Part shown: in pieces, positions 119 to 24,263 of the stretch
Layout: every line of letters begins with the position of its first letter
Position numbering within the stretch: the stretch's first letter is position 1
Virus genome (UHGV): UHGV-0135394
Reading direction: 5' to 3' (one strand)
Source of the DNA: a virus
DNA: 25,890 bases
Notes under the pieces: model-generated
What the model was told of the DNA's origin: nothing
What the model saw: only the letters and a program-made list of their open reading frames with translations
The model's database searches: none
Made by a program: the position numbers and the translations under genes

Positions 119-346
119 GTGAAGCGATGGTTCCTCATAATTACTGTTTTCGCGATCATTTACGCTATTTTCCCTGCATTAAAAGCACCAATGCAAATAA
201 TTTCACTGGCAATAATTGCAATTGGTGCTTTCATTACAGTATCCGTACTTGTGTTTAAGGTTTTAAAGTTTTTAGTTTGGCTATCAAAAGATGATGGATG
301 CAAAGTTCATCAAGAAAAAGAAGGCAAAATAACCAAAGTTGACTAA
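119..346 (+). CDS. Small two-transmembrane-helix membrane protein (75 aa), moron-like, GTG start
   Basis: Strong SD AAGGAGG at 107..113, 5 nt before GTG 119; two hydrophobic segments (residues ~4-21 and ~27-49) with charged C-tail; AT-rich relative to flanks; stop overlaps stop of convergent gp16-like gene. Confidence 0.55.
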   Translation: MKRWFLIITVFAIIYAIFPALKAPMQIISLAIIAIGAFITVSVLVFKVLKFLVWLSKDDGCKVHQEKEGKITKVD

Positions 347-2466
347 CTGTCACTAGCGAGCCATGTAATAATCCCCGTGCGGGCAATGGTTTTTGCTTCA
401 TCTGTTGATAGGGTTTTCTCCCATCTCTTAAATGCCCCAGATTGCATCAGTTTCCTTTCTATTGCGCGTCTCACTTCTGCTCTGTCTACTGGTGCGTTTT
501 GCAGGCGAAATAGCATTGATTTAAACTCAGGAGAAGACAGTAGAGCATCAGCAGCCTTTATCCTGCTTGTTTTCCCTGACATCAATGCGGACGTTATCAC
601 CCCTGTTGCACCTACACCAGGAAGACCAGATAAGCTTGTAACACCTTCCGCCGCAGCAGCTTTTGAGGCTATTCCATAAATTTTTGCTAGACTACCCTTT
701 TCCTTCAGAAAGTTATTAACTTGCTGATCCACAAGGCTGCTAGCATACTGCTTACCAGTATTGAGTCTATTCATAGCCTTGGCAGCTTGATAAATCGTAT
801 CAAGGCGCTTTGATGCATCTGTGCCAATAGCATCACGGAGAGCCTTCATATTGGCCCCATTGCGTGACATTCCGTTATACCATTTTACAAATCCATCAAC
901 CCCTAATTGCTGACCTGGTGATTTAGCATAGCTGGTAAATGCTTTATTCATTGAGGTGAGCGCAACTTCCTGCCGCATATCCTTTGGAATTGACTTCATT
1001 AATTGCCTAAAGTCACCACCGTTTCCTTTTGCCATATTAACAACGGCACTTTCAACTTTTGGAATTGCTGATTGCTGAAGTTTTCTACCCAAAACGGTTA
1101 CGGCATCATCTTCCATGGATTTTCGTTTTTTTACCAACTCCTTACCAAGCGTCCATAACTCCCCTGCGCCATATTTTTCTGCGACAGCCTGTTGGTCATC
1201 TGTTATAGCTGCATATAACTTTTTAAGAACACCTGTTTCTTCATCCTTGAATGGGCCAGAGCCTTTGCCAATAGCTTGCCCAACCTGCTTTCTAGCGAGA
1301 TCTAAACGCCCATACGTTGGCAAGGTGTTTGGATCAAGTCGGTTCAATGTCCGCTTCATTATTGGAGATAATTCATCAATTCCACCTATGTCATCAGCAA
1401 AATCCTCTAAAAAATTCAATGTATTGGTTGCCTCAATACGGTCTCTTACTGGAACCTTTTCGGCAATTTTGTTGTAGATGTTATCTGACTGATTTTGTAA
1501 TGATGAAATGGTTTTATCAAAATTATCTGCAAGCCTGTCAGAAACCAGTTGCTTATCAAGGTTTCCCCCAAATGAAGTTATCATTTCATCAGCTTTTCTT
1601 CCTAATTCAGTAATAAAGCGCTTATGCGCCTCACTAATCTCTGTTCCAGGGAGACTTGCCACTGCATTATCAAGAGCCCTGACAGCAGGATTATTAGAGA
1701 TCATTCCTGGAGTGGCATAATTTTCCAGTTCTAGCTCACGGATGGCATTTATCGCGTTAAAATCAGGATTAACTTCATCGGCGAAACCTTGAATAGCTCG
1801 TTGCCCGCCAATAAATTTATTATCCATTGCGCCAGCAGCTTTCTTTAACGTTGCTTTAGATGATTTACTCCCCATCCCTACGGATGAGCGATAAATATCC
1901 CCGGCACTATTTTTAATTTTTCCTGCAATCTTCCCAAGCGCTGGACCAACAATCTCGGCTACAGGGCCAGCCACAGCGCCAATAGCAGCGCCGGAAGCAA
2001 CATCGCCATTTGTTCCATTGGCTACAATAGCCCCTTCTCCAGCACCAAGCCCTGCGGCGGCAGCCAGCCTTGCCGCCCCTTTCGGAACCTGAGAAATAAT
2101 CCCACCACCACTAACAAATGGCGCTGCTTGTCCAACAAACTCACCAACATCTTGTGCGGTTGATGGTTTTGCCGCTAACTTCTGCTGTAGAGACTGAATT
2201 GCGGCTTGCTCTTCTGGTGTCATATCCTGAAACAGGCCAACACCTTTACCAACATCCATCAATCCACTGAGAACGCCATACATAAAACGGTCGAAACCGT
2301 TAGCATTATTAACAACATTTTCCTGTCTGGAATTTTCCTCTGGTGAAACCAAAGGAGATTGCTGCTGTTCTGGTTGGGAATCAAGCACAAAGCCATCAGG
2401 AAGTTGTGAGTTATCAGGCTGTTCATCCAGAACAAACCCCTCTGGTAAACCTACATTGGTTGCCAT
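343..2466 (-). CDS. Ejection (E) protein, P22 gp16-like (707 aa)
   Basis: Last gene of the gp7/gp20/gp16 ejection-protein series by synteny; Ala/Gly-rich large protein; start overlaps upstream gene end. Confidence 0.75.
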
Positions 2467-3800
2467 TGTCCGTTCCTGTAAATAATTTTCTGACCAGTTT
2501 TAGGATTTTTCGCGGTCATACCTTCTCGAAATGTTTGACCGCCAGATGTTGCTTGTTGTGTCTGTTGTTGCGCAGGCTGCTGAATATCTTCATACAGCTT
2601 GGCTTTTCTGGATTGCAATTGCTTAGTTAGTCCGCTGGGGAGAGAATCTCCATAAGTTGAAAGATAATCATCCATTTGCTGATTAAACTTTTCGCCTTCA
2701 GTATTTGCCATCAGTTTTGAGGTGTTGATTAAGTCTTGGACTTGCTCATTATTCAGCATCTTGCCGTTAGATAATTGGCTAACATAGTTACCAAGTGTGC
2801 CGAATATTCCATCAGTGCGTTTTACCTGCACTTGCTCACCTTCGCGTACCACAGATTGCGGATCCAGCGATTTCATATAGTTGAAAATCATTCCCAACTG
2901 CGCGGCTGGAGTGTTGCGCTTCCCAAGGGCTTGTAGGTTGTCAGAAGCACTGCGCATTGCAGAATAATTCTTTGAGAACCCATTAATATCACTATTCAGA
3001 TCTCGAACAAGTTTTGGGTCAATCTTTCCGCTTTCCTGTTGTTTCATCCCTAATTCCTGCAACTTCAGGGCTACGTTATCATTATGCATTTGTGCCCGCT
3101 GAGCCCTGTCTAGTTGAGCGTTTTGGATATTTGCCCATCCTCTCGCGTTCTCCATGTCAGCCTGACGGATGCTTTCATCCAATCGCCCTTTCTCAAGTTG
3201 GCGACCAACCATCTTATCCTGATAATCCAGCATTTTATCCGGGCCAACAGCCCCTAGCGTCATAGTAGTCAGCATGTGTGATAGCTGCTCTGGATTCTGA
3301 ATACCTGTCTGAATCATCCAGTCAGCATTAGCACCAACGCGATTTAACCTGTCCTTGTTGTCAGTAATGAATTTACTGTAGGCTTCCGGTCCCTGAGAAA
3401 GAGCGACGTTAGCCATCATGGCTAAATCGCCCATATCGTTGCGTTGCTGATCATTAAGACCGGAAAACGCCTGTTGTGCCTGTGCAACAAACGCTGGATT
3501 TTCCTGGGCAAACTTAAATAGTCCCGATGGATCACCAGAAGCCCATGCATCAGCGTGAACCTTATTGAACGCACTAATAGCTTTCTGTTGCTGTTCCTGA
3601 TTGTAAATATCAGCAACTCCAGCCAGACCACGTAACGCGGTCAGGCCAACGTTATTTGCACCTGAGCGAGCCAGTTCATTGTTTTCGCGGATCAGACCAA
3701 GCGTTGCGTTAATGTCGCTTGCCTTTGGCGCATTCTCGTTTTGCGCACCAATGCCAGCAAGAAAACCACCAGAATTAATACCCTGTTGCCACGTAGCCAT
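2451..3800 (-). CDS. Ejection protein, P22 gp20-like (449 aa)
   Basis: Synteny between gp7-like and gp16-like genes; Gln/Asn-rich composition typical of P22-group internal ejection proteins. Confidence 0.8.
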
Positions 3801-3810
3801 TGATTACCCC

Positions 3811-4503
3811 TTAAAACAACGAGCCAAGCAGACCAAGACCAGCACCGATACCAGCACCCCACGGAGTTGATAGCTCGAGAGCACTGGCTATGCCACCACC
3901 CAAAAGCGCACCGGATGCAGCACCACTAACACCCTGCTGCAATGCTGACGGTCGGTTGGCGTTTGCAGCCGCCAGCGCCGCGCTTTGCTGTGAAATCTGA
4001 CTCATGTTGTTGGCATATGTCTGCCCGGCGTTTGCCTGACCTTGCAGAGCACCAAGCCCAACGTTTGCCAGATTCTGGTAGTTGTTCATCTGACCAGACA
4101 GCCACTGCTGACCAAGCGTTGGTGCGATTGTTGCTAACTGATTACCGGTTGCAGTGGAACCCAATCCACCTGTTGCTTCCGCTGACGCCAGACTCTGATA
4201 GCGAGCCTGACCAGCAAGATCTTTGTACTGCTGAGAGTTGTAATACTGGTTAAGTGCCTGACCTTGCCCTTCCAGAGACGATAAGTTCTCGAGGCTGCCG
4301 ACATACTTATCAGCCAGAGGAGTAAACGGCTTCAGGTTGTTCATGATGGTGTTGAACTGCTGATTTTGCAGGTCTGCTGCATACTTCTGAGCTTCTGCTG
4401 CATACTTTGCGCTTTTATCAGAACTGCCACCTTTCCCGCCTTTTTCAGGGCAATAAGGTTCCTCGCCGCGCAGTTTTCTGCCCAGCTTAAATGCATATAA
4501 CAT
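3811..4503 (-). CDS. Ejection protein, P22 gp7-like (230 aa)
   Basis: Translation MLYAFKLGRKLRGEEPYCPEKGGKGG... with Gly/Ala-rich C-terminus ending GLLGSLF closely matches recalled P22 gp7. Confidence 0.88.
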   Translation of the reverse strand: MLYAFKLGRKLRGEEPYCPEKGGKGGSSDKSAKYAAEAQKYAADLQNQQFNTIMNNLKPFTPLADKYVGSLENLSSLEGQGQALNQYYNSQQYKDLAGQARYQSLASAEATGGLGSTATGNQLATIAPTLGQQWLSGQMNNYQNLANVGLGALQGQANAGQTYANNMSQISQQSAALAAANANRPSALQQGVSGAASGALLGGGIASALELSTPWGAGIGAGLGLLGSLF

Positions 4504-4964: not shown

Positions 4965-5809
4965 TGCTCCGCGATTATCTTGATGGTTGTGGCAGTAAAC
5001 GCCGCACCATTTGACTGAATGGTTAACGTGCTGCCATTTGTGGCAAGAAAGCCGTCTTTATCCACGCTGAAGAACGTAGCTAACAAGATGTTATCGGTTG
5101 TTGTCGCCGAGTTGCGACTGCTTACCAGTGTGTCAGGAACAGAGCCGGAAAAGGTTAGCTGCATTGACCTGTTGGCGGTTCCGCTGGGCCACGTCCCGAC
5201 GATCGACAGCTTGAAGAACAAGGTTTTGTTCTCGTTGAACACAACCATCTTGTTGTTAACGGTGTCGAAGAATGGTGCCAACGTGCCGGATGACGGCGTG
5301 AGCGTTTTCAGCAGGCTAACAAGGTTGGTCGGCGCTGTCGGGATGGTTACAGATACGCCAGAGTAAACAACCTCTGACTTCTTGCGAGTAGTGGCATACT
5401 CCAGAGCATCGATGCGCGTTTCATGGTCTGAAACCTGCGATTCGAGCGACTGAACTCTGGTATCAAGCGACGCAATATCGCTTTCATTCTGAGCTATTCG
5501 TGTTTCATGTTCCTGAAGAGTTGATTCTGCCTGGCTGATTCGCTCCTCATGATTAACAAGCGTTGCTTCCGCAGCAGAAATTCGCTGCTCATGGTCAGCG
5601 AGAATCACATCCTGCTCATCGTTCCTGACTTGTGCATCATAAGCGCCCTGTCCGGCCTCGTTGGCCTTGTTCGCCACGTTACCAACATCAGTGCCCTGCG
5701 CGATAACGTAAAGCAGATACGACTGCGAGAAGATATTGCGTGGAAGGATTGATGTATCGAGCCGCGTCGCCTGCACAATAACAGGGGTGTTGAGATTCGA
5801 ATCAGCCAT
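4961..5809 (-). CDS. Tail needle protein, gp26-like with C-terminal knob domain (282 aa)
   Basis: N-terminus [43 protein letters not shown] matches P22 gp26 N-terminal domain; heptad-like coiled-coil middle; ~100 extra C-terminal residues as in Sf6/HK620-type needles; ATGA overlap with gp10-like stop. Confidence 0.85.
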
Positions 5810-7227
5810 TACTCAATCCTTATCTGGCAGCCTGACAGAGTGACAGGTGACTTCGTGATAACGCGCAATTTGAAGCCGACATTTTTCCTGATGCGCCCGA
5901 CTCGCTTCCACAAAACACGTTTGTCATAAACGAACGGTTCATTCTGCTCAATCATCTGCTCACGCCCGTAATTGATGCCGTCAGTGGTTGCAGAGAGAAA
6001 AAGGCGGTCGGCGTACTGAGCAACGCCAGTTGAAGATTCAACTTCAAGGTCGAAAACTCTGGCGTTATCCGCTTTGAAGAGTGGAGTAAACAGCAGGTGT
6101 TCTTGCTGTAGCCCATACTGGCTGCTGATATCGAACTGCAATTTCCCAATCACCGATTCCAGCTTATCGCCGCACGTTATCTGATTGCCTTCGTAAATGA
6201 AGTCGATAGCGCGGTACACATCGTCATACAAGCCAGTTTTCAACACACACCATTGCGGACCATTGGCGCTTGAAGATGCGTCGTACACCAGAACATGGCG
6301 CGGAAGATGGATAATCAGCAGTTCATGCGCATCAAATCGCAGCGATTCCATCACACCATCAGCCAGTTCATCAGCAGTGTAGGAGCGTAGTATTTTCTCA
6401 ATGCTCGCGCTGGCGATTGGTGACACCTGACCGGATCCGATGATGTATACAGACGGCGCACCTGTTGCCGGATTGCTGATGAACGCATACGAATCAGCAA
6501 ACGGCGTTTTGCAGTAAGTCCCAGCAATGCCTTTCTGCACCATCAGCGATGGCTGTGCGACATACAAAGCAGCACCAACTGTGGTTGCACCAGTCAGGGA
6601 GAAATATTCAATCGTCGATGAACCAAAGCAGACGATGAAGTCTCGCCATGTACCTATGCCGATGATGCCGTCCGGCTGTGATTCTGCGCGATATGCTGCA
6701 CTGTATCGGTCAGGGTGCGATTCGTCTTCAAGGTCAGTGATAAACCATGAATCAGTTCCGTCTTTTGACCACGCATAACGCCCACGTAAGCGCGTAATGT
6801 CGCGAACTGAACCTAACTCGTACTGTGTGAATCCGCTGTCCGTAGGCCAGTTCGAGACGGTTTTAACCGTGCCATCATAGCGGTATTCGACCAGTTGACC
6901 ATTAACGCCTACCGCCTGTGATGTCCGCCCATGCGCCATTGATACGCGACCACTTCCGGCAACGTCACCGACTTCACTTTCGCCTTTGTAGAGCTTGCCA
7001 CCACACACGCGATAAACAGCATTCTGCGCCATGTTGTACTCGACACCGCGCGATACACCATTCACATCAGAGCGTTTGGCAATGCCCGGGAATGAGCGAA
7101 GATATCCGCTGCTGTTGAGGATTTCTTTGGGTGTAGCCAGCATATTCACTGGCAGATAGTCGATATAGTCAGCGTTTCGAAAGTCTTTGCCGACACCTTT
7201 CATAAGCGGAAGTTGCTGAATCGGCAT
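5809..7227 (-). CDS. Tail accessory factor, P22 gp10-like (472 aa)
   Basis: Near-identity over full length to recalled P22 gp10 ([11 protein letters not shown]...SGCQIRIE). Confidence 0.92.
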
Positions 7228-7728
7228 TTATTCGCTCCCGTTATCACAAGGTTCCTTTCGGTGGAAGTAATTCCAACCGTTCCACTTCGCCAACTGATTA
7301 CCGCTACCAACAGGCATACGGTTTGGATAACCGGACTTACATTTAGCGGCTTTTGCTCTGTCCATTGCAGACAGTTTGACGAGTCGCTCTTTCCCGTATC
7401 TGGCAGTGGTTATAAGTTTTGCTGACGCTTCCAGCGCATAATCCGGAGCAATGCGGCAGGCAAGGTTGAAAATGACGGCATTGATAGCGTTATTTGATAA
7501 ACCGTGCTCATCGCCCGGATCCGGAGCGACATCTGCATCAGCAAAAATGTAGCCAACGTTGATACCAGGTGACGCATCACCGCCAAGCCATTCAGCCATC
7601 ATCATTTCAAGGTCGTTGACGCCGTCTTCCATGGACTGAGGTTCGACATCGGTTAACGTGGCATTTGATGCCACACCGAGCTTACGTAATGCCGCAAGAA
7701 CTAAATCACCCTTCGTTGTCAGGTTCAT
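7228..7728 (-). CDS. Tail accessory factor, P22 gp4-like (166 aa); start placed at internal Met of the 195-aa ORF
   Basis: Homology begins at [21 protein letters not shown] (P22 gp4 starts MQIKTKGDLV...); SD-like AAGGCGG upstream of that ATG; the upstream SQSQSQ extension is read-through of a hexamer repeat. Confidence 0.85.
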
Positions 7729-7954
7729 CTGCTGCCGCCTTAGGTTTTCGACCAGGCTTTTTACGCTGTTTTTCTTCTGGCTCTGGCTCTGGCTCTGGCT
7801 CTGGCTCTGCAACATCCTTCAAAAGGTCATCAGGATGTGAAAACCAGCCAGCATCCAGATATTCCTGAAGCTCTTCGGCTTTCACGATTTCAAAGTCGTA
7901 TCCAACGCCTTTCCATTTCTTCATGTCTCCATGACTAAAGATCATGTGTGTCAT
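7706..7954 (-). CDS. Small protein (82 aa) with (Glu-Pro)5 repeat and Lys/Arg-rich tail, between coat and gp4
   Basis: GGAGA SD then ATG at 7952..7954 immediately after the coat terminator hairpin; positional equivalent of the small ORF between coat and gp4 in P22-like phages. Confidence 0.45.
7777..7809. repeat. Perfect tandem hexanucleotide repeat (CTGGCT) x5.5
   Basis: Direct reading of 7777..7809; encodes (EP)n in the small-ORF frame and (SQ)n in the frame upstream of the gp4 start. Confidence 0.95.
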
Positions 7955-7965
7955 GCTTGTCTCCA

Positions 7966-7990
7966 GATAAAAAAGGGAGCCGAAGCTCCC
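7966..7990 (-). terminator. Intrinsic terminator just after coat gene
   Basis: Minus-strand hairpin GGGAGC-UUCG-GCUCCC (plus 7975..7990) followed by UUUUUUAU; 8 nt after the coat stop. Confidence 0.6.
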
Positions 7991-7998
7991 TCTGGTTA

Positions 7999-9294
7999 TC
8001 ACGCAGTCTGGTTAGGCAGACCAACACCAATTGCCTCTGGTCGTACAGCACATGCTGAATACCACACAGCAATACGGCACTTACCAGACAGAGTGTTGAT
8101 ATCGCCCTGCGTTGCGAAGATGCCGTTAACACCAATACCAGGAATGCTGAAGGAAGAAGTTTTCATGCCAGCAAACAGTTCATGGGTTACCGGGATCGGC
8201 TGAGACAGTAGGCGGATTGAGTCATCAGCCCAGAACACGTTAGCGGTGGTTGTTGCCACGTTCAGAACGTTTACCGGAGTGGTATCAGCAAGAGAAGTGT
8301 TTACGTTAGCGTAAGCCTTCTCTTCTTTTGTCAGTGACGCGTCATCCAGTGCAATCGGCTTCGGCGTGATTTCGATGTGAGTACCATCGATCACACGGGT
8401 GATTGAGAAAGTCGCATCATCAGTTAGCACGTTCTTCGCCATCTGAGACAGGAATTTCACACCAGTGAAGCTGATTTTGTCGCCGCGCTTAAATCCGGTG
8501 GTGGAGGATACGGTCACCGTTGCAACACGGTTGTCGACGTTCTCTTTGTTACCATCGGTATCAAGGGTGTATGCCTGCGGCTTAAACTTCTGCGCACCAG
8601 ACACAGTTACACCAGTAGCGGTTGACTTGGTAACTGCCGGAAGTTTCGGTGAGCGAAGAATTTCATCAAAGCCAGCAATCTGACGCTGAATAGTACCGTT
8701 GCGATACGCTTCTTCAGGAACGCGCCCAAAGATGTCACCATCTACCAGGTTGCGGCCTGCTTTGCGGTAATCGTCAGGGTTCAGGAAGTAACTGATGCCC
8801 ATATCGCGGTTTAGCTCACGGGAGAACATCAGGCGCTCTGCATCAGACACAAAATCCCAGCCAGACAGGCCAGTAGATGGACCAATTGCGCGGGTATCGT
8901 GAACAACAAGCGAGCCCATTTCAGTTGCCTGTTTGGCAATCGCTGACTCAATGTTATTCGCCAGTTTTTTGGCGGATGCCTGGATGCGGCGACGGTAAGA
9001 ACGCTCATCACGCAGGTCATCTGCACGAAGCTCGAAGAAATCGTTATCCGGATCGCCCATGTTGCATTTCACGGAGAGTTCCAGAATCCCTGTTGCGTTG
9101 CCAGTTAAATCCCAGCCAGTCTGGGTTGGCGCTTCCTGCTCAACAGGCATCCACACGGTGTTGCTTGAACGCTGCATGGATTCTGCCGGAGGGGTGTATT
9201 TTGTCACTTTGGACGCCATTGGCGTCAGGTTCTGGACGGTTTCAATGATTTCATCCAGAGCATATGTGACCAGTTGACCTTCATTTAATGCCAT
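7999..9294 (-). CDS. Major coat protein, P22 gp5-like (431 aa)
   Basis: Full-length similarity to recalled P22 coat (MALNEGQ...[13 protein letters not shown]). Confidence 0.95.
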
Positions 9295-10205
9295 TATCGA
9301 ATTCCTTTATTCAGTTGCGCCTTGAGCTTGCGGTATGTCTCTACATCCCCTTTGTTTGCTGCCGCTTCCATCTGCTTTTCAATCGCAGAGATATTTGCAG
9401 CAACAGCGTGTCCCTGAATTGGTTCATCAGGTAACGGGGCTTCTGAAACAGGCTTGGCTCGAGGCTTGAGAGTTAAACGTTCTGACAGTCGAGTGAGTTC
9501 AATCAGCGCGGATTGCCCGTCCATCGCCAGCAACTGGCGTGTTTTCTCAGGATTAGCACCAAGGTGATACATGAGAGCGGCGGATTTCTCCGGGAAGAGG
9601 CGCATGATGTCGGCACCGACTGATGGCGGCACCAGTTGCATGAATGCATCCTCTTTCTCCTGATAGTCAGGGATATTGAGCTTTTCCGCTGCGTCGTAGT
9701 GCTTACGGGCTGCCTCGACGTATTGCGCTGATTGCTGGGTGAACTCCTGAGTTTTGCGACCCTGCTCGGCTACAGCCTGGCTTCGTGCGTCCATAGCCTT
9801 GATCTGCCATTCACTGTTTGCCTGCTGGAAGGCAGCCAGTGCGCGGCTCTGGTCATAGTCGTACTTAGCCAGTGCATCTTCGGAAAGATAATCGTTAGGG
9901 TCTGGTTGTTTTGGTAACTCAGGGTTCACCCGCAGGTGCTCCGGCAACTCTCCACGCTTAACCGCTTCCATCTGCTGCTCAAGCTCACGCTGTCGTTTGC
10001 GTTCGATGCGGCGACGGGCAAATTCAGCATTAGTTGCCGGGTCTTGTTTTGGTTTCTCATCGTCTTTCAGGACAATCTCGAAGCCTTCTTCCTGACCTGC
10101 GTTGTCGTTGGCATTATCGACAACTAAGCCATCAGCAGATGCCGCTGCATGATTGCCGGGCAGGGTTAATTCTTCAGAAGCCTGAATGTCGGTGGTTTGG
10201 TCCAT
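9294..10205 (-). CDS. Scaffolding protein, P22 gp8-like (303 aa)
   Basis: Strong similarity to recalled P22 gp8, including conserved C-terminal coat-binding region ...[11 protein letters not shown]. Confidence 0.92.
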
Positions 10206-10218
10206 GATTAACTCTCTC

Positions 10219-12384
10219 TTATTGAGGTGTCTCGGCTACTCCGCCGGAGGGGATTTGAACTTGACGCATAAGATTCGCGAAATCCATGCGTTGTGAATGA
10301 GTCTGGTCTGCATCTTTAAGAAGCAGCTCAGCGTTAGCACGAGCATCTTTGCTGCGCTGTTGCTGGAATTGACCTACGAGCTTGAGGTACTCACGCAGTT
10401 CTGCCTGCTTGTCGAGGTCCATATTGTTGAAGATTTCTGCAATCTTCGCGGCGTTGAGTTGGTTTTGAGCTTCAACCTTGGCAGCTTCAACCTGAATCTG
10501 CGCCTGTTGGTTCTCTGCCTTGAGCAATTCAGCCTGACCTTGCAGAAGGATACCCTGCGCCTGAATTTGCTCTGCTGATGGCTGCTGCGGCTGCTGTTGC
10601 GCCTGTTGTACCATCTCCATCTCTTCAGGTGTTTCTGGTTTCTTCAGCCCCATCATCACCAGTTGCTTGTTCGCGTACTCTCGCATCATCTCGACGCCTT
10701 TACCGTCAAGCAGAGTGAAGTATTGCAGCATCAGCATCTGGAACTCTGGAGTACCTTGCGGAACCTTGGTGAGTAACTCCTGAATCTCTGCGCGGTTCTG
10801 TTCCTTCATGCTCTGGAAGGATGGCCCAACGTCCGTATAGCACTCATAGCGACCACGAATGTCGTTGAGTGTGACCACATTGCCGGACTGGTAATCGACA
10901 ACTTGCGCATAGAGTTGAACGTCTTTCTCGCTACCATCTTCAAGTGTCAGCGTTACATGACGAGGAACGTCATAAATATCATTGACCATTGATGCATAAA
11001 TCTCGCCATCGCGTCGCATTGCGGTAGCCAGGTTATCCTGAAACACGTATGTCTCAAGGTCTGCCCGCATGTTCAGTTGATTGACGGTATCGAAAGCGAC
11101 CTGACCGTTTGCTGCCTGCGCATCCACGCCAAGACTAGCCACCTCTTTCACTGCGTTGGTGGCAGCCTCAAGCATGTAAGCGTTGGCCTGCGGTACTTCA
11201 GGGTTTTCCATGTAAGAGATTGGACCAATCGGCAGGTCGTTACCGTTTTCATCGTTCTTGTTCTGCAGATAGTACGGATAGTCATCATTTCCACCGTACA
11301 TGTATTCGTAGCCTTCGATTTGCTCAGGGAAGAAGGTCGGTTTCTTCTTCGGTGAACGAGCAACAATATCGGCGTTGAATGACATGATCATGTTACGAAG
11401 GCGCTGACCGTCTTTCGTCAGCCTTACCACTCCTTCGTAGCACTCCTTGTCACCAGCGAATGACCATTCGCCATACACTGGAACGATTGGAATATGCTCT
11501 CCGGCTATCTTCTCGCGGTCTTTCAGTATCTGCGTGCAGGTGATGATCGACTTATACACACGCCGACGCTTCACCTTGCGCTCTGCTACCTTAATGAATC
11601 CACGATTAGCCAGGTCGTCGATGACGTCTTTGATATCCTGCTGGTAATAGCTGACCGGCTCACCTGTCAGCGGGTCGCGGTAGATGAAGACTTTCTCTTT
11701 CTTCTCTTCTACCTCGTAATACTCAGCAACGTAGACGACATCATTCGATACCCACGGAAACAGCCATGTATCGTTTGGATTCTGGAAAGATGGCAAGGTG
11801 TCAGGATCAATACCGTAATCCTCTGCGAACTCTTTCCAGCCATTGCGCGACAAGGCGTTAATCACCGTGCAGTGCTTAGCGTCGCTCTTATCCATCTGCT
11901 TGCTGTTGGCGTCCCATATGACGTGTGAGCAGGCTTCATGGATTGGAAGGCGTCGGATTACCTGATTGTTGCTTGTTGGGTCGTTGTCTTCGTACTGGGT
12001 GACCAGACGCCATGCACCAACGCCGGACTCTATCTGCTCACGAACTCCAACGTTAACGGCAATCTTTGCCGTGTTATGGCGCATATCAGTACGATACATT
12101 CCCATCAACACATCGGCAGCATCAGGATTAGCGCCGTCTTTGGGTCGGAAGAGAACGTCGATAGGGTTCCGGCGCATCTCTGCGACCAGTTTCCTGACCA
12201 CCGGGCGAACAACATCGAATTGTCCGCGATATTGCAGAGTCGTGTAGTTTGATAGCCAGTCATCCCATTGCGACACTCGGCTAAAATACAGGTCATTTGT
12301 CGCCTCGGTTCTGGCTTCATCGCTCGCCATCCAGTCCGCGTCAAACTTACACAGAATGGAATTGAGTCTGTTTTCGTCGGCCAT
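10219..12384 (-). CDS. Portal protein, P22 gp1-like (721 aa)
   Basis: Full-length similarity to recalled P22 portal, including Gln-rich C-terminal barrel region ending SGGVAETPQ. Confidence 0.95.
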
Positions 12385-13884
12385 TTAAGTTCTCCGTGCG
12401 ATGGGCCTGATTGGGGCTGGTATCTTTTTCTCTTTTGGTTTTTTGATGTCGCGCATCATTTTGGAGAAGCGGCGCATCATGTATGCATAGCGAACGGCTG
12501 AGAGAACGTCGTCGTTAAGCTTGACGATCTTCCCGTTTTCATCACGGTGATAGAGGCGAAACTCCTCAAAGAATGGTTCACAGGTGTTGAATACCTTGAA
12601 GCGACCATCTAGCATCATGTCGCGCAATTCAGTGATTCCAGGCTCAACAGCATTACCGCCATCAGGCCATGTCGCATGCTCCTGCAACATCATAAATCCA
12701 GCGTCTGCATACTGCCCTTTGAGCTGCTCACCGCCGCCCTTCTCATGCTGGTTTCCGTCATGAGGCCATGCGGTTGGCACTTTATGCGCCCATGATTTAA
12801 CAGCTCCCCATGCCTGAACAGCTGTTTTTTCTTTCGCCTTCCACACGCGTGAAACGTAGATTGTGTCTGCGTCCTTATCCCACCAAAGCTGAACCTGCGC
12901 CTGTGGGTGATCCCATCCGAAATCCATCCCACCAATTACGTAGAAGTGATCAGGACACTCGAACGGCTGACACTTAATCGTCTCTTCCGGTATCTGGAAG
13001 ATTCGACCACTACCCATCGTAGGAATACCGCGAGCACGCGCCTCTCTCTCATGCTCGGGATAGGATGCGATGATTTGCTCTTTCTGCTCGTCGGTGTAGT
13101 GCTCAGCGTCGTAGATGGTCATGTTGACAACTTTCTGCGACTTGCTGGGATTCTTCAGGAACTTGGTAACAACGTCAGACATCCCCATCAGCGGGGTAAA
13201 CGTCAGAATTGAGAATTGCCCGTATTTGTTGGTACGGGTAAGACCTTCGCCATAAATGCTGTATGGTGGTTCTTCGTCAAACCACACGCCGTGGATTGTG
13301 TCACCCTGCCAGCGAGCGCGGCCTTGCGAGTATGGTTTGAAGTAGCAGATTGAAATGCCATCTTCAACGCCATCAGCCGTGTGATGCTTAACCAGAAGAT
13401 GATCAACAAGGTTCGGAAAGAAAGGAGACTTCTTCCAGCTAATGATGTCCTCTTTCGGTATGGAACCGTAGCCAGGCTCATCATTCTCTTCGATACGACC
13501 GCACAGGATGCGTTGAGTCGTTTTGGTTACAGTCTCGTTTGTCTCGCCGCCAATCCAGAAGACAACAGGCTCATAGAAACGCTTACCTTTCCACTCCCCA
13601 CCATATTTACCATCAGCAGGATAGCCTTTTGTGCCCGGATAACGCCCTGTAAGGTGAAACGCGACTTCAGCAGCACCAGTAAATGACTTACCAAGCTGGT
13701 TACCAGCCATAAAACATCGCTCTGGATAGTCATGTCCGGCGTCGATGAACTCACGCTGTTTGCTGTATGGCGTAAATTCATATAGCAGGTGAGTGTTCCG
13801 GTAGTTCTCTTCTTCTTCGAGTAGCTCGAGCAATTCGATTTGCTCTTCGTCGCTCAAGTTATCAAGAATCGCGTCCAGTTCCAC
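12385..13884 (-). CDS. Terminase large subunit, P22 gp2-like (499 aa)
   Basis: N-terminus [37 protein letters not shown] and length match recalled P22 gp2; Walker-type GNQLGKS motif. Confidence 0.95.
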
Positions 13885-22912: not shown

Positions 22913-23104
22913 ATGACCGATACCAGCCTGATTCCTGAGAAAGAAGTGATGAACAAGCTCGGTGTTTCATCACGTCAGACAATCTGGAACTATACCAAAC
23001 GGCACGGATTTCCGAAGCCAGTCAGAACCCACCCCAAATCATACCTTCGTGAAGCTGTTGAAGGGTGGATTCTTAACGGTGGCGTTAATCAGAAATGCTC
23101 CTGA
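22913..23104 (+). CDS. AlpA/excisionase-family HTH protein (63 aa)
   Basis: Short HTH-like protein adjacent to a P4-type integrase; 3' end overlaps the integrase 3' end by 20 bp on the opposite strand. Confidence 0.7.
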   Translation: MTDTSLIPEKEVMNKLGVSSRQTIWNYTKRHGFPKPVRTHPKSYLREAVEGWILNGGVNQKCS

Positions 23105-24263
23105 TGTGCCAGAACAATTTATCAGCGTGAAGCTCATACGCTTTGCGCTGAGCCTCTATCCAGTCGTGTTTATTGTATACGGACATTATCCCGCCAAGTT
23201 CATGACCGAGCATTCGCTCAGTAACATGAGGCTCGACATTCATCTCGGACAGACGTGTAACAAGCGTTCTTCTGAAATCATGTGTTCGCCAGTAACCCAG
23301 ATCCATCCCTCCCCTTATTCGATTTACGAATCGGTTGGCTGCAGCGATGCTGATCGGTTTGTTTATGTCTTCTCCAGGGAAAAGAACATCATTGTACGTT
23401 GTCATGGCCTTTTCGAGGAAAGGCTTAATTTGTTCGAAGATTGGACGGCGGATAACATTACCCATCTTGCTATGCTCTTTCGGTACGGTCCATACGTTGT
23501 CCAGCAGGTCAAACTCTGTCTTTGTTGCCAGCCTAAGCTCTGAGAGCCTCGCCCCCCACAGCATAAGCATCTGATGAAGGAGCTTATTTGACGTAGACGC
23601 ACGGCTTCTTTCAATAGCAAGCCAAATCTTAGCCAGTTCGTGATACGACAGTACCCGATCCCCTACCTCAGCGCGGGAGCCGAAGTCCCTTGGTTGGATG
23701 CTCATAATTGCGCAACTATCTATCAACTGACGCCGCATGCACCAACTTATTGCTGATCTTAGTTGACTTAGCACCTGCCTTGCTCGGCGTGGATTATCTC
23801 TTTCTTCTTCGGTAAGCAGGTCAACCCATTGCTTAACCGTGATAGAAGATGCCGGACGATTAGGAAAGGCGTCATGCATGCGCTTCATAACCGTTGATCG
23901 GTAAAGTGCCTGGGTCTTTTCTCTGAGAGTTGTAGAGACGTAGTTGTCGAACCAGTAGTCGAGACACTGGGCGACCGTCATGGAGTTCTCCACCTTCTCT
24001 TCAAAATAAGTGCGTGGATCCGTTCCTGAGAAATAGAGCTTTCGCAAGTCAGCAGTGATCTGTCTGGCATCCTTCAAAGACAGGGATGGGTATCGACCAA
24101 GCCCAAGTCGATTAGGCTTGCCATGCCAGCGATAGCGGTACTGGAACTGGATGACCCCCTTCGGTGAAATTCGTACGCTGAGGCCATCGGCATCAGCCAC
24201 TTCTTGTGGGCCAGAATATGGTTTACCATAAATAGTACGCAGTTTTGTGTCGCTTATAGCCAT
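23085..24263 (-). CDS. int: Tyrosine site-specific integrase, P4-type with N-terminal arm-binding domain (392 aa)
   Basis: N-terminal DUF4102-like domain (...GLSVRISPKGVIQFQYRYRWHGKPNRLGLGRYPSLSLKDAR); catalytic signature HDFRRT ... LGHELGG ... SVY near C-terminus; located at the prophage-host junction. Confidence 0.92.
   Translation of the reverse strand: MAISDTKLRTIYGKPYSGPQEVADADGLSVRISPKGVIQFQYRYRWHGKPNRLGLGRYPSLSLKDARQITADLRKLYFSGTDPRTYFEEKVENSMTVAQCLDYWFDNYVSTTLREKTQALYRSTVMKRMHDAFPNRPASSITVKQWVDLLTEEERDNPRRARQVLSQLRSAISWCMRRQLIDSCAIMSIQPRDFGSRAEVGDRVLSYHELAKIWLAIERSRASTSNKLLHQMLMLWGARLSELRLATKTEFDLLDNVWTVPKEHSKMGNVIRRPIFEQIKPFLEKAMTTYNDVLFPGEDINKPISIAAANRFVNRIRGGMDLGYWRTHDFRRTLVTRLSEMNVEPHVTERMLGHELGGIMSVYNKHDWIEAQRKAYELHADKLFWHIRSISD

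Follow-up and report, generated by a model that had tools for sequence, protein, structure and literature searches.

A hexanucleotide coding repeat that varies by whole units in the small gene between the coat gene and gp4 of P22-like prophages

A small open reading frame (ORF) between the coat protein gene and gene 4 is common to several P22-like phages, in which it has been named orf69 (P22), gene 6 (epsilon34) or orf186 (phages L and ST64T), and its products fall in the protein families phrog_1175 and phrog_3769. We analyzed this position in the virus genome UHGV-0135394 (25,890 nucleotides (nt); this whole stretch is hereafter called the window), where the small ORF upstream of the gene 4 homologue, gp4, carries a perfect tandem array of the hexanucleotide GAGCCA. 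The role of epsilon34 gene 6 and its homologues was reported as unknown, with "significant differences in the lengths" among homologues; the P22 homologue is internally deleted, and the gene is non-essential in P22 in the laboratory (PMC2629481). The phage L homologue, orf186, was listed with "detailed function unknown" (PMC8022706). The small ORF and the P22 orf69 family have homologous N-terminal modules in common. Both also have a basic K-P-K-A tail, the codons of which hold the gene 4 ribosome-binding site, and both overlap gene 4 at the 3′ end. Salmonella members of the family are without the hexanucleotide array, whereas the hypervariable perfect GAGCCA array is a feature of the Escherichia coli group. 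In the literature searched on the orf69 family, the length differences described reflect deletions at the domain level, with the WDGH domain either present or absent, and not differences in repeat number. A literature search on P22 orf69, judged from titles and abstracts, yielded nothing relevant, and searches on the repeat sequence gave unrelated papers, with no description of the hexanucleotide polymorphism found; the GenBank record of phage APC_JM3.2 flags a repeat_region at the locus. Both the family and the length differences at the domain level are thus known from earlier work, and in-frame coding microsatellites and slippage are familiar, so the locus adds no new mechanism.

Three described systems resemble the array in part. 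The spacer of TonB consists of (Glu-Pro)n followed by (Lys-Pro)m and forms an extended, rigid, polyproline-II-like rod. The small protein likewise has a Glu-Pro (EP) run followed by a Lys/Pro-rich basic stretch, a likeness in composition only, not homology; it has two K-P pairs and lacks a transmembrane anchor, a TonB C-terminal domain and a Pfam TonB match. The 6-bp coding repeats STTR5 and STTR6 of Salmonella, the latter located in a prophage, are used for strain typing in enterobacteria by multiple-locus variable-number tandem-repeat analysis. The present locus shares with them a hexanucleotide inside an ORF and in-frame polymorphism between close strains (diversity here ~0.89), and its use as a typing marker was not described in the literature searched. 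NeuO of prophage CUS-3 contains a coding tandem repeat that changes by strand slippage, is present in 2-93 copies and is translated as a variable peptide extension (PMC3046976). Both loci are coding slippage repeats with a wide copy range in a gene of a P22-like prophage. However, the NeuO unit is 7 bp, and two of three lengths frameshift the gene to the off state, resulting in phase variation; NeuO is moreover a lysogenic-conversion enzyme with measured repeat-number dependence, whereas the unit here is 6 bp, in frame and in a late structural operon.

In the window, Tandem Repeats Finder identified a perfect period-6 array at 7776-7809 (5.7 copies, 100% matches). An exact match to (CTGGCT)5 was located at 7777-7806, where 0 were expected from 100 dinucleotide-preserving shuffles. 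A first-pass annotation made from the letters alone had proposed that the array encodes an EP linker in the small ORF, and the GAGCCA units from 7807 to 7778 indeed lie in the frame of ORF 7954..7706. It had also placed the array in the overlap between the small ORF and the region directly before the gp4 start. The array is there, but only a spurious upstream extension of the gp4 frame overlaps it, and the true overlap of the small ORF and gp4 is limited to 7706-7728. The alternative frame does read SQSQSQ, as had been noted, in an ORF extendable to an ATG at 7815.

The repeat number was clearly not identical in all relatives, the outcome that would have spoken against the earlier suggestion of a slippage-prone array; it ranged from 1 to 33 units and differed between prophages with nearly identical flanks. 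The region was present in 219 of 5,426 complete E. coli genomes, with match lengths of 477-669 nt in 6-nt steps, corresponding to 1-33 units. Complete-genome alleles of 1, 5, 7, 18 and 33 units were confirmed by sequence, those of 1, 5, 7 and 18 units by translation as well, and in NZ_CP173582 (33.7 copies) the 33-unit array was 100% perfect. Match lengths of 502 and 512 nt, considered as frameshift candidates, were explained by differences in the T run of the hairpin downstream of the coat gene. Among phage isolates, Bas106 had 2 units, HZ41 5, Louie 5 (including two ES units), Dewey 6 (the last unit being EQ), and IME10 and APC_JM3.2 8 each. In IMG/VR, 109 loci were located by a pattern from the conserved tail, and these carried 14 alleles (1-14 units), whole units throughout. 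Alleles of 1 to 14 units were represented by 7, 22, 15, 14, 8, 13, 9, 3, 6, 3, 1, 3, 3 and 2 loci, respectively, giving a Nei diversity of ~0.89 (calculated by hand from these counts). The prediction that copy number would change by whole 6-bp units without a frameshift held for all 109 IMG/VR alleles and for all complete-genome alleles checked. Because the unit is 6 bp and every checked allele was in frame, a change in repeat number cannot cause phase switching by frameshift; on/off changes by promoter spacing found no support, with no promoter-like site in 7200-8300. With regard to unit composition, GAGCCA accounted for 480 of 555 units in IMG/VR, and the variants included GAACCA (EP), GATCCA (DP), GAGCAA (EQ), GAGTCA (ES) and rarer others. 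Protein clusters added ET, EL and KP units as well as higher-order duplications, for example (ESEPELEP)2. The acidic first position of the unit (E or D) was retained far more often than the proline.

The tempo of these changes was assessed with 55 short-form IMG/VR loci with long flanks (3,509 nt of flanks). The IMG/VR set was used because ten loci with identical gp4 had flanks that were ~2% diverged and were uninformative on rate. Nine pairs had at most 4 mismatches in the 3,509 nt of flanks, and the unit number differed in six of them. The array was the only gap in every blastn alignment of these six pairs (4.1-9.6 kb, 1-14 mismatches). L022 and L023 (4,142 nt aligned, 10 mismatches) were separated by a gap of 18 nt, with 14 versus 11 units; L089 and L132 (8,988 nt, 14 mismatches) by 24 nt, with 13 versus 9 units; and L116 and L127 (8,515 nt, 4 mismatches) by 6 nt, with 6 versus 5 units. 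Three further pairs were formed by L061, L134 and L137: L061/L137 (5,387 nt, 1 mismatch, gap of 18 nt, 6 versus 3 units), L134/L137 (9,585 nt, 6 mismatches, gap of 6 nt, 4 versus 3 units) and L061/L134 (4,415 nt, 4 mismatches, gap of 12 nt, 6 versus 4 units). As the array was the sole gap in near-identical pairs, it changes at least as fast as single substitutions arise over several kilobases, and such fast change is the signature of slippage-driven repeat variation. In the Salmonella relatives, a single EP was found in epsilon34 (gaa ccg) and none in P22, indicating that the array arose when an older acidic/proline linker was expanded in a lineage-specific manner. With at least 14 alleles, a diversity of ~0.89 and the sole indel between near-identical P22-like prophages, the locus could separate very close E. 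coli lysogens or follow prophage microevolution.

Our preferred reading, to which we assign a probability of roughly 80%, is that the array is an in-frame coding repeat subject to slippage or unequal recombination, that it forms a tolerant acidic spacer in a conserved accessory protein, and that the gp4 initiation region places a constraint on the 3′ end of the gene. The perfect repeat would gain or lose units when replication slips within it or when it recombines unequally. A 6-bp unit would leave the small ORF, the gp4 ribosome-binding site and the gp4 start undisturbed, so that the length would be only weakly constrained and the array would act as a tolerant acidic spacer and not as a switch. 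The 3′ end of the gene would be constrained mainly by carrying the gp4 translation-initiation region, which makes translational coupling plausible. Several points weigh against this reading. Slippage is inferred from the comparison of copy number between prophages, the neutrality of the length variation is assumed, and the translation of the small ORF is argued from comparative evidence. The well-kept acidic position shows some constraint on composition. In addition, some near-identical pairs may share a study or a lineage, and the IMG/VR contigs are mostly short-read assemblies, in which long arrays may be under-represented or collapsed.

The allele spectrum was broad, with no dominant length, and complete genomes retain perfect arrays as long as 18 and 33 units; the unit variants also kept their acidic character. 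These observations would fit adaptive length variation, in which spacer length adjusts how active or far-reaching the small protein is, or diversifies it against a host factor, and NeuO of CUS-3 provides a precedent for a repeat-tuned protein in a P22-like prophage (PMC3046976). However, mutation pressure alone on a tolerant linker would also yield a broad spectrum, and no phenotype, partner or function was found for the small protein. The family was reported as non-essential in P22 (PMC2629481). Furthermore, P22 and epsilon34 are without the array and have just a short acidic/proline linker, indicating that the array is not required for the function of the family. We consider an adaptive role of the length variation unlikely.

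Comparison of the window with long-form loci revealed a mosaic structure at the array. The exact 166-aa gp4 of the window was found downstream of short and long forms alike. Between the window and the long form, a stretch of ~99% homology stops shortly past the coat hairpin and ahead of the ORF start, and homology resumes inside the array at 93-96% over gp4, gp10 and beyond, whereas the cassette between these points cannot be aligned. The array is therefore the exact right-hand junction of a recombining cassette (the short form versus the WDGH-containing long form), with the left boundary at the hairpin. A WDGH domain (Pfam PF25311, E 1e-39) was identified in the epsilon34 gene 6 product, which is 186 aa long, and also in the long forms of E. 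coli (195-203 aa), which carry 1-5 EP units. Many E. coli prophages have the long form at this locus, for example L007 (446-1051), and L011-L014 and L016 (about 2430-3023). In these, the WDGH domain is placed between a diverged N-terminal module and the EP array and tail that are common to the short form. By itself, the WDGH domain occurs widely among unrelated phages, such as Listeria A511/P100, Bacillus, Streptococcus and Klebsiella phages and cyanophage S-2L. No function was found for the domain, and a literature search on the term "WDGH domain" gave no paper.

That homology between short and long forms resumes exactly at the array, that the array occurs in both forms and that it lies ~50 nt upstream of the gp4 start could mean that it acts as a nucleic acid, either as a recombination joint for the exchange of N-terminal cassettes or as an mRNA element affecting gp4 translation. 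This explanation appears very unlikely to us. Any modular protein would be expected to have a junction at a domain linker, with or without a repeat. The RNA spanning the array and the gp4 start is not predicted to fold more stably than shuffled sequences (z = -0.48), and the gp4 Shine-Dalgarno sequence and its spacing are independent of array length. The synonymous or conservative unit variants (GAACCA and GATCCA) fit selection in the protein frame.

The gp4 start was examined in the relatives of the window. The first-pass annotation had left it between position 7728 and a site further upstream, and the comparison favored 7728, since P22, epsilon34, L019 and the long-form prophages all lack the in-frame ATG further upstream. 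At the place of ATG 7815, L019 has ACG, the long forms have only TTG, and epsilon34 has no start codon; in P22, a stop lies one codon upstream of the gp4 ATG. In contrast to the ATG at 7815, CCTAAGGCGG, located 9-10 nt upstream of the gp4 ATG, was kept in all relatives, including P22 and epsilon34. These results indicate that gp4 starts at 7728 and that the SQ reading is an artefact. The last codons of the basic motif (aag cct aag gcg) hold the Shine-Dalgarno-like TAAGG of gp4 at 7742-7738. The overlap between the small ORF and gene 4, which is 23 nt in the window, is 17 nt in P22, 17 nt in epsilon34 and 11-14 nt in divergent relatives. The gp4 homologue matched Pfam P22_Tail-4 (E 1e-58) from residue 2 of the 166-aa form.

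It could be argued that the repeat belongs to an N-terminally extended gp4 (MLQSQSQ...) and that the small ORF is not a gene, because ATG 7815 opens a 195-aa ORF in the gp4 frame and the GenBank records of IME10 (L005), Dewey (L002) and Louie (L003) run gp4 on across the repeat and leave out the small gene. We give this view almost no credence. The upstream ATG is missing in the relatives listed above, the P22 stop intervenes, and the P22_Tail-4 match begins with the 166-aa form; moreover, it is the frame of the small ORF that has the coding signature and deep homologues. The small ORF is called in APC_JM3.2 and Bas106 and by NCBI's prokaryotic genome annotation pipeline (PGAP), which calls it together with the 166-aa gp4. 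A recurring annotation error can thus be corrected, with gp4 placed at the conserved ATG and the small gene, real by the comparative evidence, restored although it is missed in several GenBank phage records. The Dewey and Louie records also annotate a 45-aa coding sequence across the coat stop and the hairpin. A programmed +1 frameshift at GGG-TGA (GGG to GGU, into the gp4 frame), considered from the sequence alone, was rejected as a feature of the family; P22 ends in GAC-TAA and has no comparable slippery site.

The proposal that the small ORF is a translated gene with an EP linker was backed by homologues, synteny and codon-position bias. The ORF matched phrog_1175 over the full profile (E 4e-36), and its residues 1-51 matched phrog_3769 (E 3.8e-8). 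At E <= 1e-3, 341 database proteins matched it, in records of E. coli, E. albertii, E. fergusonii, Salmonella and Klebsiella. It was 35% identical to P22 orf69, and alignments with the N-terminal modules of epsilon34 gene 6 and of the E. coli long form showed 23-31% identity; G9, G16, G36, W37, H40 and P41 were invariant in the alignment. Among nine DNA haplotypes of the N-terminal 144 nt, the polymorphic sites numbered eight at the third codon position, five at the first and zero at the second. Divergent relatives (36-49% identity) kept the equivalent position and overlapped the gp4 start as well. The gene is protein-coding and always located between the coat gene and gp4, and, judged by these comparisons, the small ORF is a real gene, the short E. 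coli form of P22 orf69, epsilon34 gene 6 and phage L orf186. In the search for a functional lead, NCBIfam and PADLOC gave no hits, and sequence searches of the PDB with both profiles returned nothing significant. A Pfam match to Trypan_PARP was rejected as compositional only (17.6 bits versus a cut-off of 100). Shigella phage Sf6 gene 6 was likewise set aside as a relative: the "gene 6" matches in the literature were to gene 61, and Sf6 was not among the tblastn hits.

The layout of the family comprises an N-terminal module (~48 aa), an optional WDGH domain, an acidic/proline linker, the basic K-P-K-A motif and, where the gene overlaps gene 4, a short acidic tail. In the AlphaFold2 model of the window protein, the N-terminal module consists of a beta-hairpin (residues 2-25) and two helices (26-34 and 41-48) with a predicted local distance difference test (pLDDT) score of ~90, compared with ~50 for residues 50-82. 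The model suggests that the (Glu-Pro)n stretch is disordered or extended and joins the folded N-terminal module to the basic C-terminal peptide. A Foldseek search of the module against the PDB gave a best E of 2.3, and a structure search of BFVD returned uncharacterised phage proteins only, so that no solved or annotated structure resembling the module was found in these searches. In E. coli protein P0002, an 11-aa tandem duplication was observed at the end of the N-terminal module, indicating that larger in-frame duplications also arise in the small gene.

The N-terminal module carries an ELQxYLDxGW strand-plus-helix motif, an observation made on the window and on proteins P0128-P0142. In a whole-library phmmer search with the module, the matches besides family members were GIY-YIG proteins and HNH-like endonuclease-like proteins (E 4e-7 to 8e-4). 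These endonuclease-like matches bear 4-7 tandem modules of ~32 aa with ELQxYLDxGW. Profile-profile comparison of the N-terminal module with the endonuclease repeat (hhalign) gave a probability of 96% and an E of 1.5e-9, over 20 columns only. The small protein thus has the strand-plus-helix motif in common with the GIY-YIG/HNH homing-endonuclease-like repeats (IWINKdGxxKxIxxeELQxYLDdGWxxG, ~32 aa), but in the small protein the module is single, the hairpin is longer and a nuclease domain is lacking. The ~32-aa module is unnamed in Pfam and without a solved structure, and it presumably binds DNA, which is itself an inference. The likeness is therefore a possible lead towards nucleic-acid binding, not a demonstration of it. 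At the C-terminus, the tail of the window protein (P-G-R-K-P-K) does not match the AT-hook core R-G-R-P. The corresponding motifs are RKGRKPKA in P22 and KKPGPKPKA in epsilon34, and the tail of the distant homologue P0137 (R-R-G-R-P-P-K) has the canonical core, with a weak Pfam AT_hook match (E 0.047, 14.0 bits versus a cut-off of 17.4).

Put together, these elements would allow the small protein to be pictured as a modular late-operon factor that tethers DNA or gp4, built from a module derived from homing-endonuclease repeats, an AT-hook-like tail and a hypermutable spacer. The EP array would then be both a length tuner under diversifying selection and a recombination joint that plugs N-terminal cassettes (short or WDGH) onto a fixed tail needed for gp4 translation. 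We regard this picture as speculative and quite improbable. The modular layout (N-terminal module, optional WDGH domain, spacer and basic tail) is now defined, and the analysis highlights a conserved gene that sits between coat and gp4 in a well-studied phage group. The features of the locus are collected in Table 1.

Table 1. Positions of the repeat array, the small ORF and neighboring features in the window
Feature	Position	Strand	Remarks
Portal gene	10219-12384	minus	
Scaffold gene	9294-10205	minus	
P22-type coat protein gene	7999..9294	minus	upstream neighbor of the small ORF
Terminator-like GC hairpin (gggagcttcggctccc) followed by a T run	7966..7993	minus	stem-loop 7993-7972 plus T run; separates the coat stop from the small ORF
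Shine-Dalgarno GGAGA of the small ORF	7960..7964	minus	5 nt upstream of the ATG (7954-7952)
Small ORF, 82 aa	7706..7954	minus	short-form homologue of P22 orf69 / epsilon34 gene 6 / phage L orf186 (phrog_1175)
Predicted N-terminal folded module, residues 1-48	7811..7954	minus	AlphaFold2
Five perfect GAGCCA units, (Glu-Pro)5	7778..7807	minus	period-6 identity reaches 7776-7809
Basic C-terminal motif KKPGRKPK (11 residues in all), AT-hook-like	7739..7771	minus	core G-R-K-P rather than R-G-R-P
Spurious upstream extension of the gp4 frame	7729..7815	minus	not conserved
Overlap of the small ORF end and the gp4 start, 23 nt	7706..7728	minus	stop TGA 7708-7706; ATG 7728-7726; different frames
gp4 gene, head completion / head-tail adaptor, 166 aa	7228..7728	minus	
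gp10 gene	5809-7227	minus	

The window represents a P22-like (Lederbergvirus-type) late operon on the minus strand, and the IMG/VR contig L028 (IMGVR_UViG_3300045988_015114) was identical to it across 3.5 kb around the locus. The minus-strand gene order is Q antiterminator, small and large terminase, portal, scaffold, coat, small ORF, gp4 and gp10, followed by needle, gp14-like, gp7, gp20 and a gp16-sized ORF. The order of coat, small ORF and gp4 matches that of P22, epsilon34, L141 and L143. The hairpin next to the coat gene occupies the position of a stem-loop annotated in P22, and its T run varied from T5 to T7 among relatives; no promoter-like site was found in 7200-8300.

Several minor observations were made in the window and in related prophages. 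The 707-aa ORF at 343-2466 (minus strand), at the position of P22 gp16, was without a Pfam match at E <= 1e-3. A tyrosine integrase with Arm-DNA-binding and Phage_integrase domains is encoded at 23085-24263 (minus strand), ~4 kb past the Q antiterminator gene, which is not the usual place on a P22-like map; contig cutting or a second element may account for the position. In the related prophage H160 (NZ_CP086220.1, 794637-800356), an IS3-family transposase splits the scaffold-to-gp10 region. In the E. coli prophage L014, gp4 and gp10 are separated by an inserted HNH/NUMOD4 homing-endonuclease gene (3501-4226), and a 34-aa product weakly matching the gp10 family (Phage_stabilise) is encoded directly upstream of it. 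Two imperfect tandem duplications were also observed in the window, one within the gp7 ejection-protein gene (4373-4414, period 21, 2 copies) and one within the large terminase gene (12789-12823, period 18, 1.9 copies).

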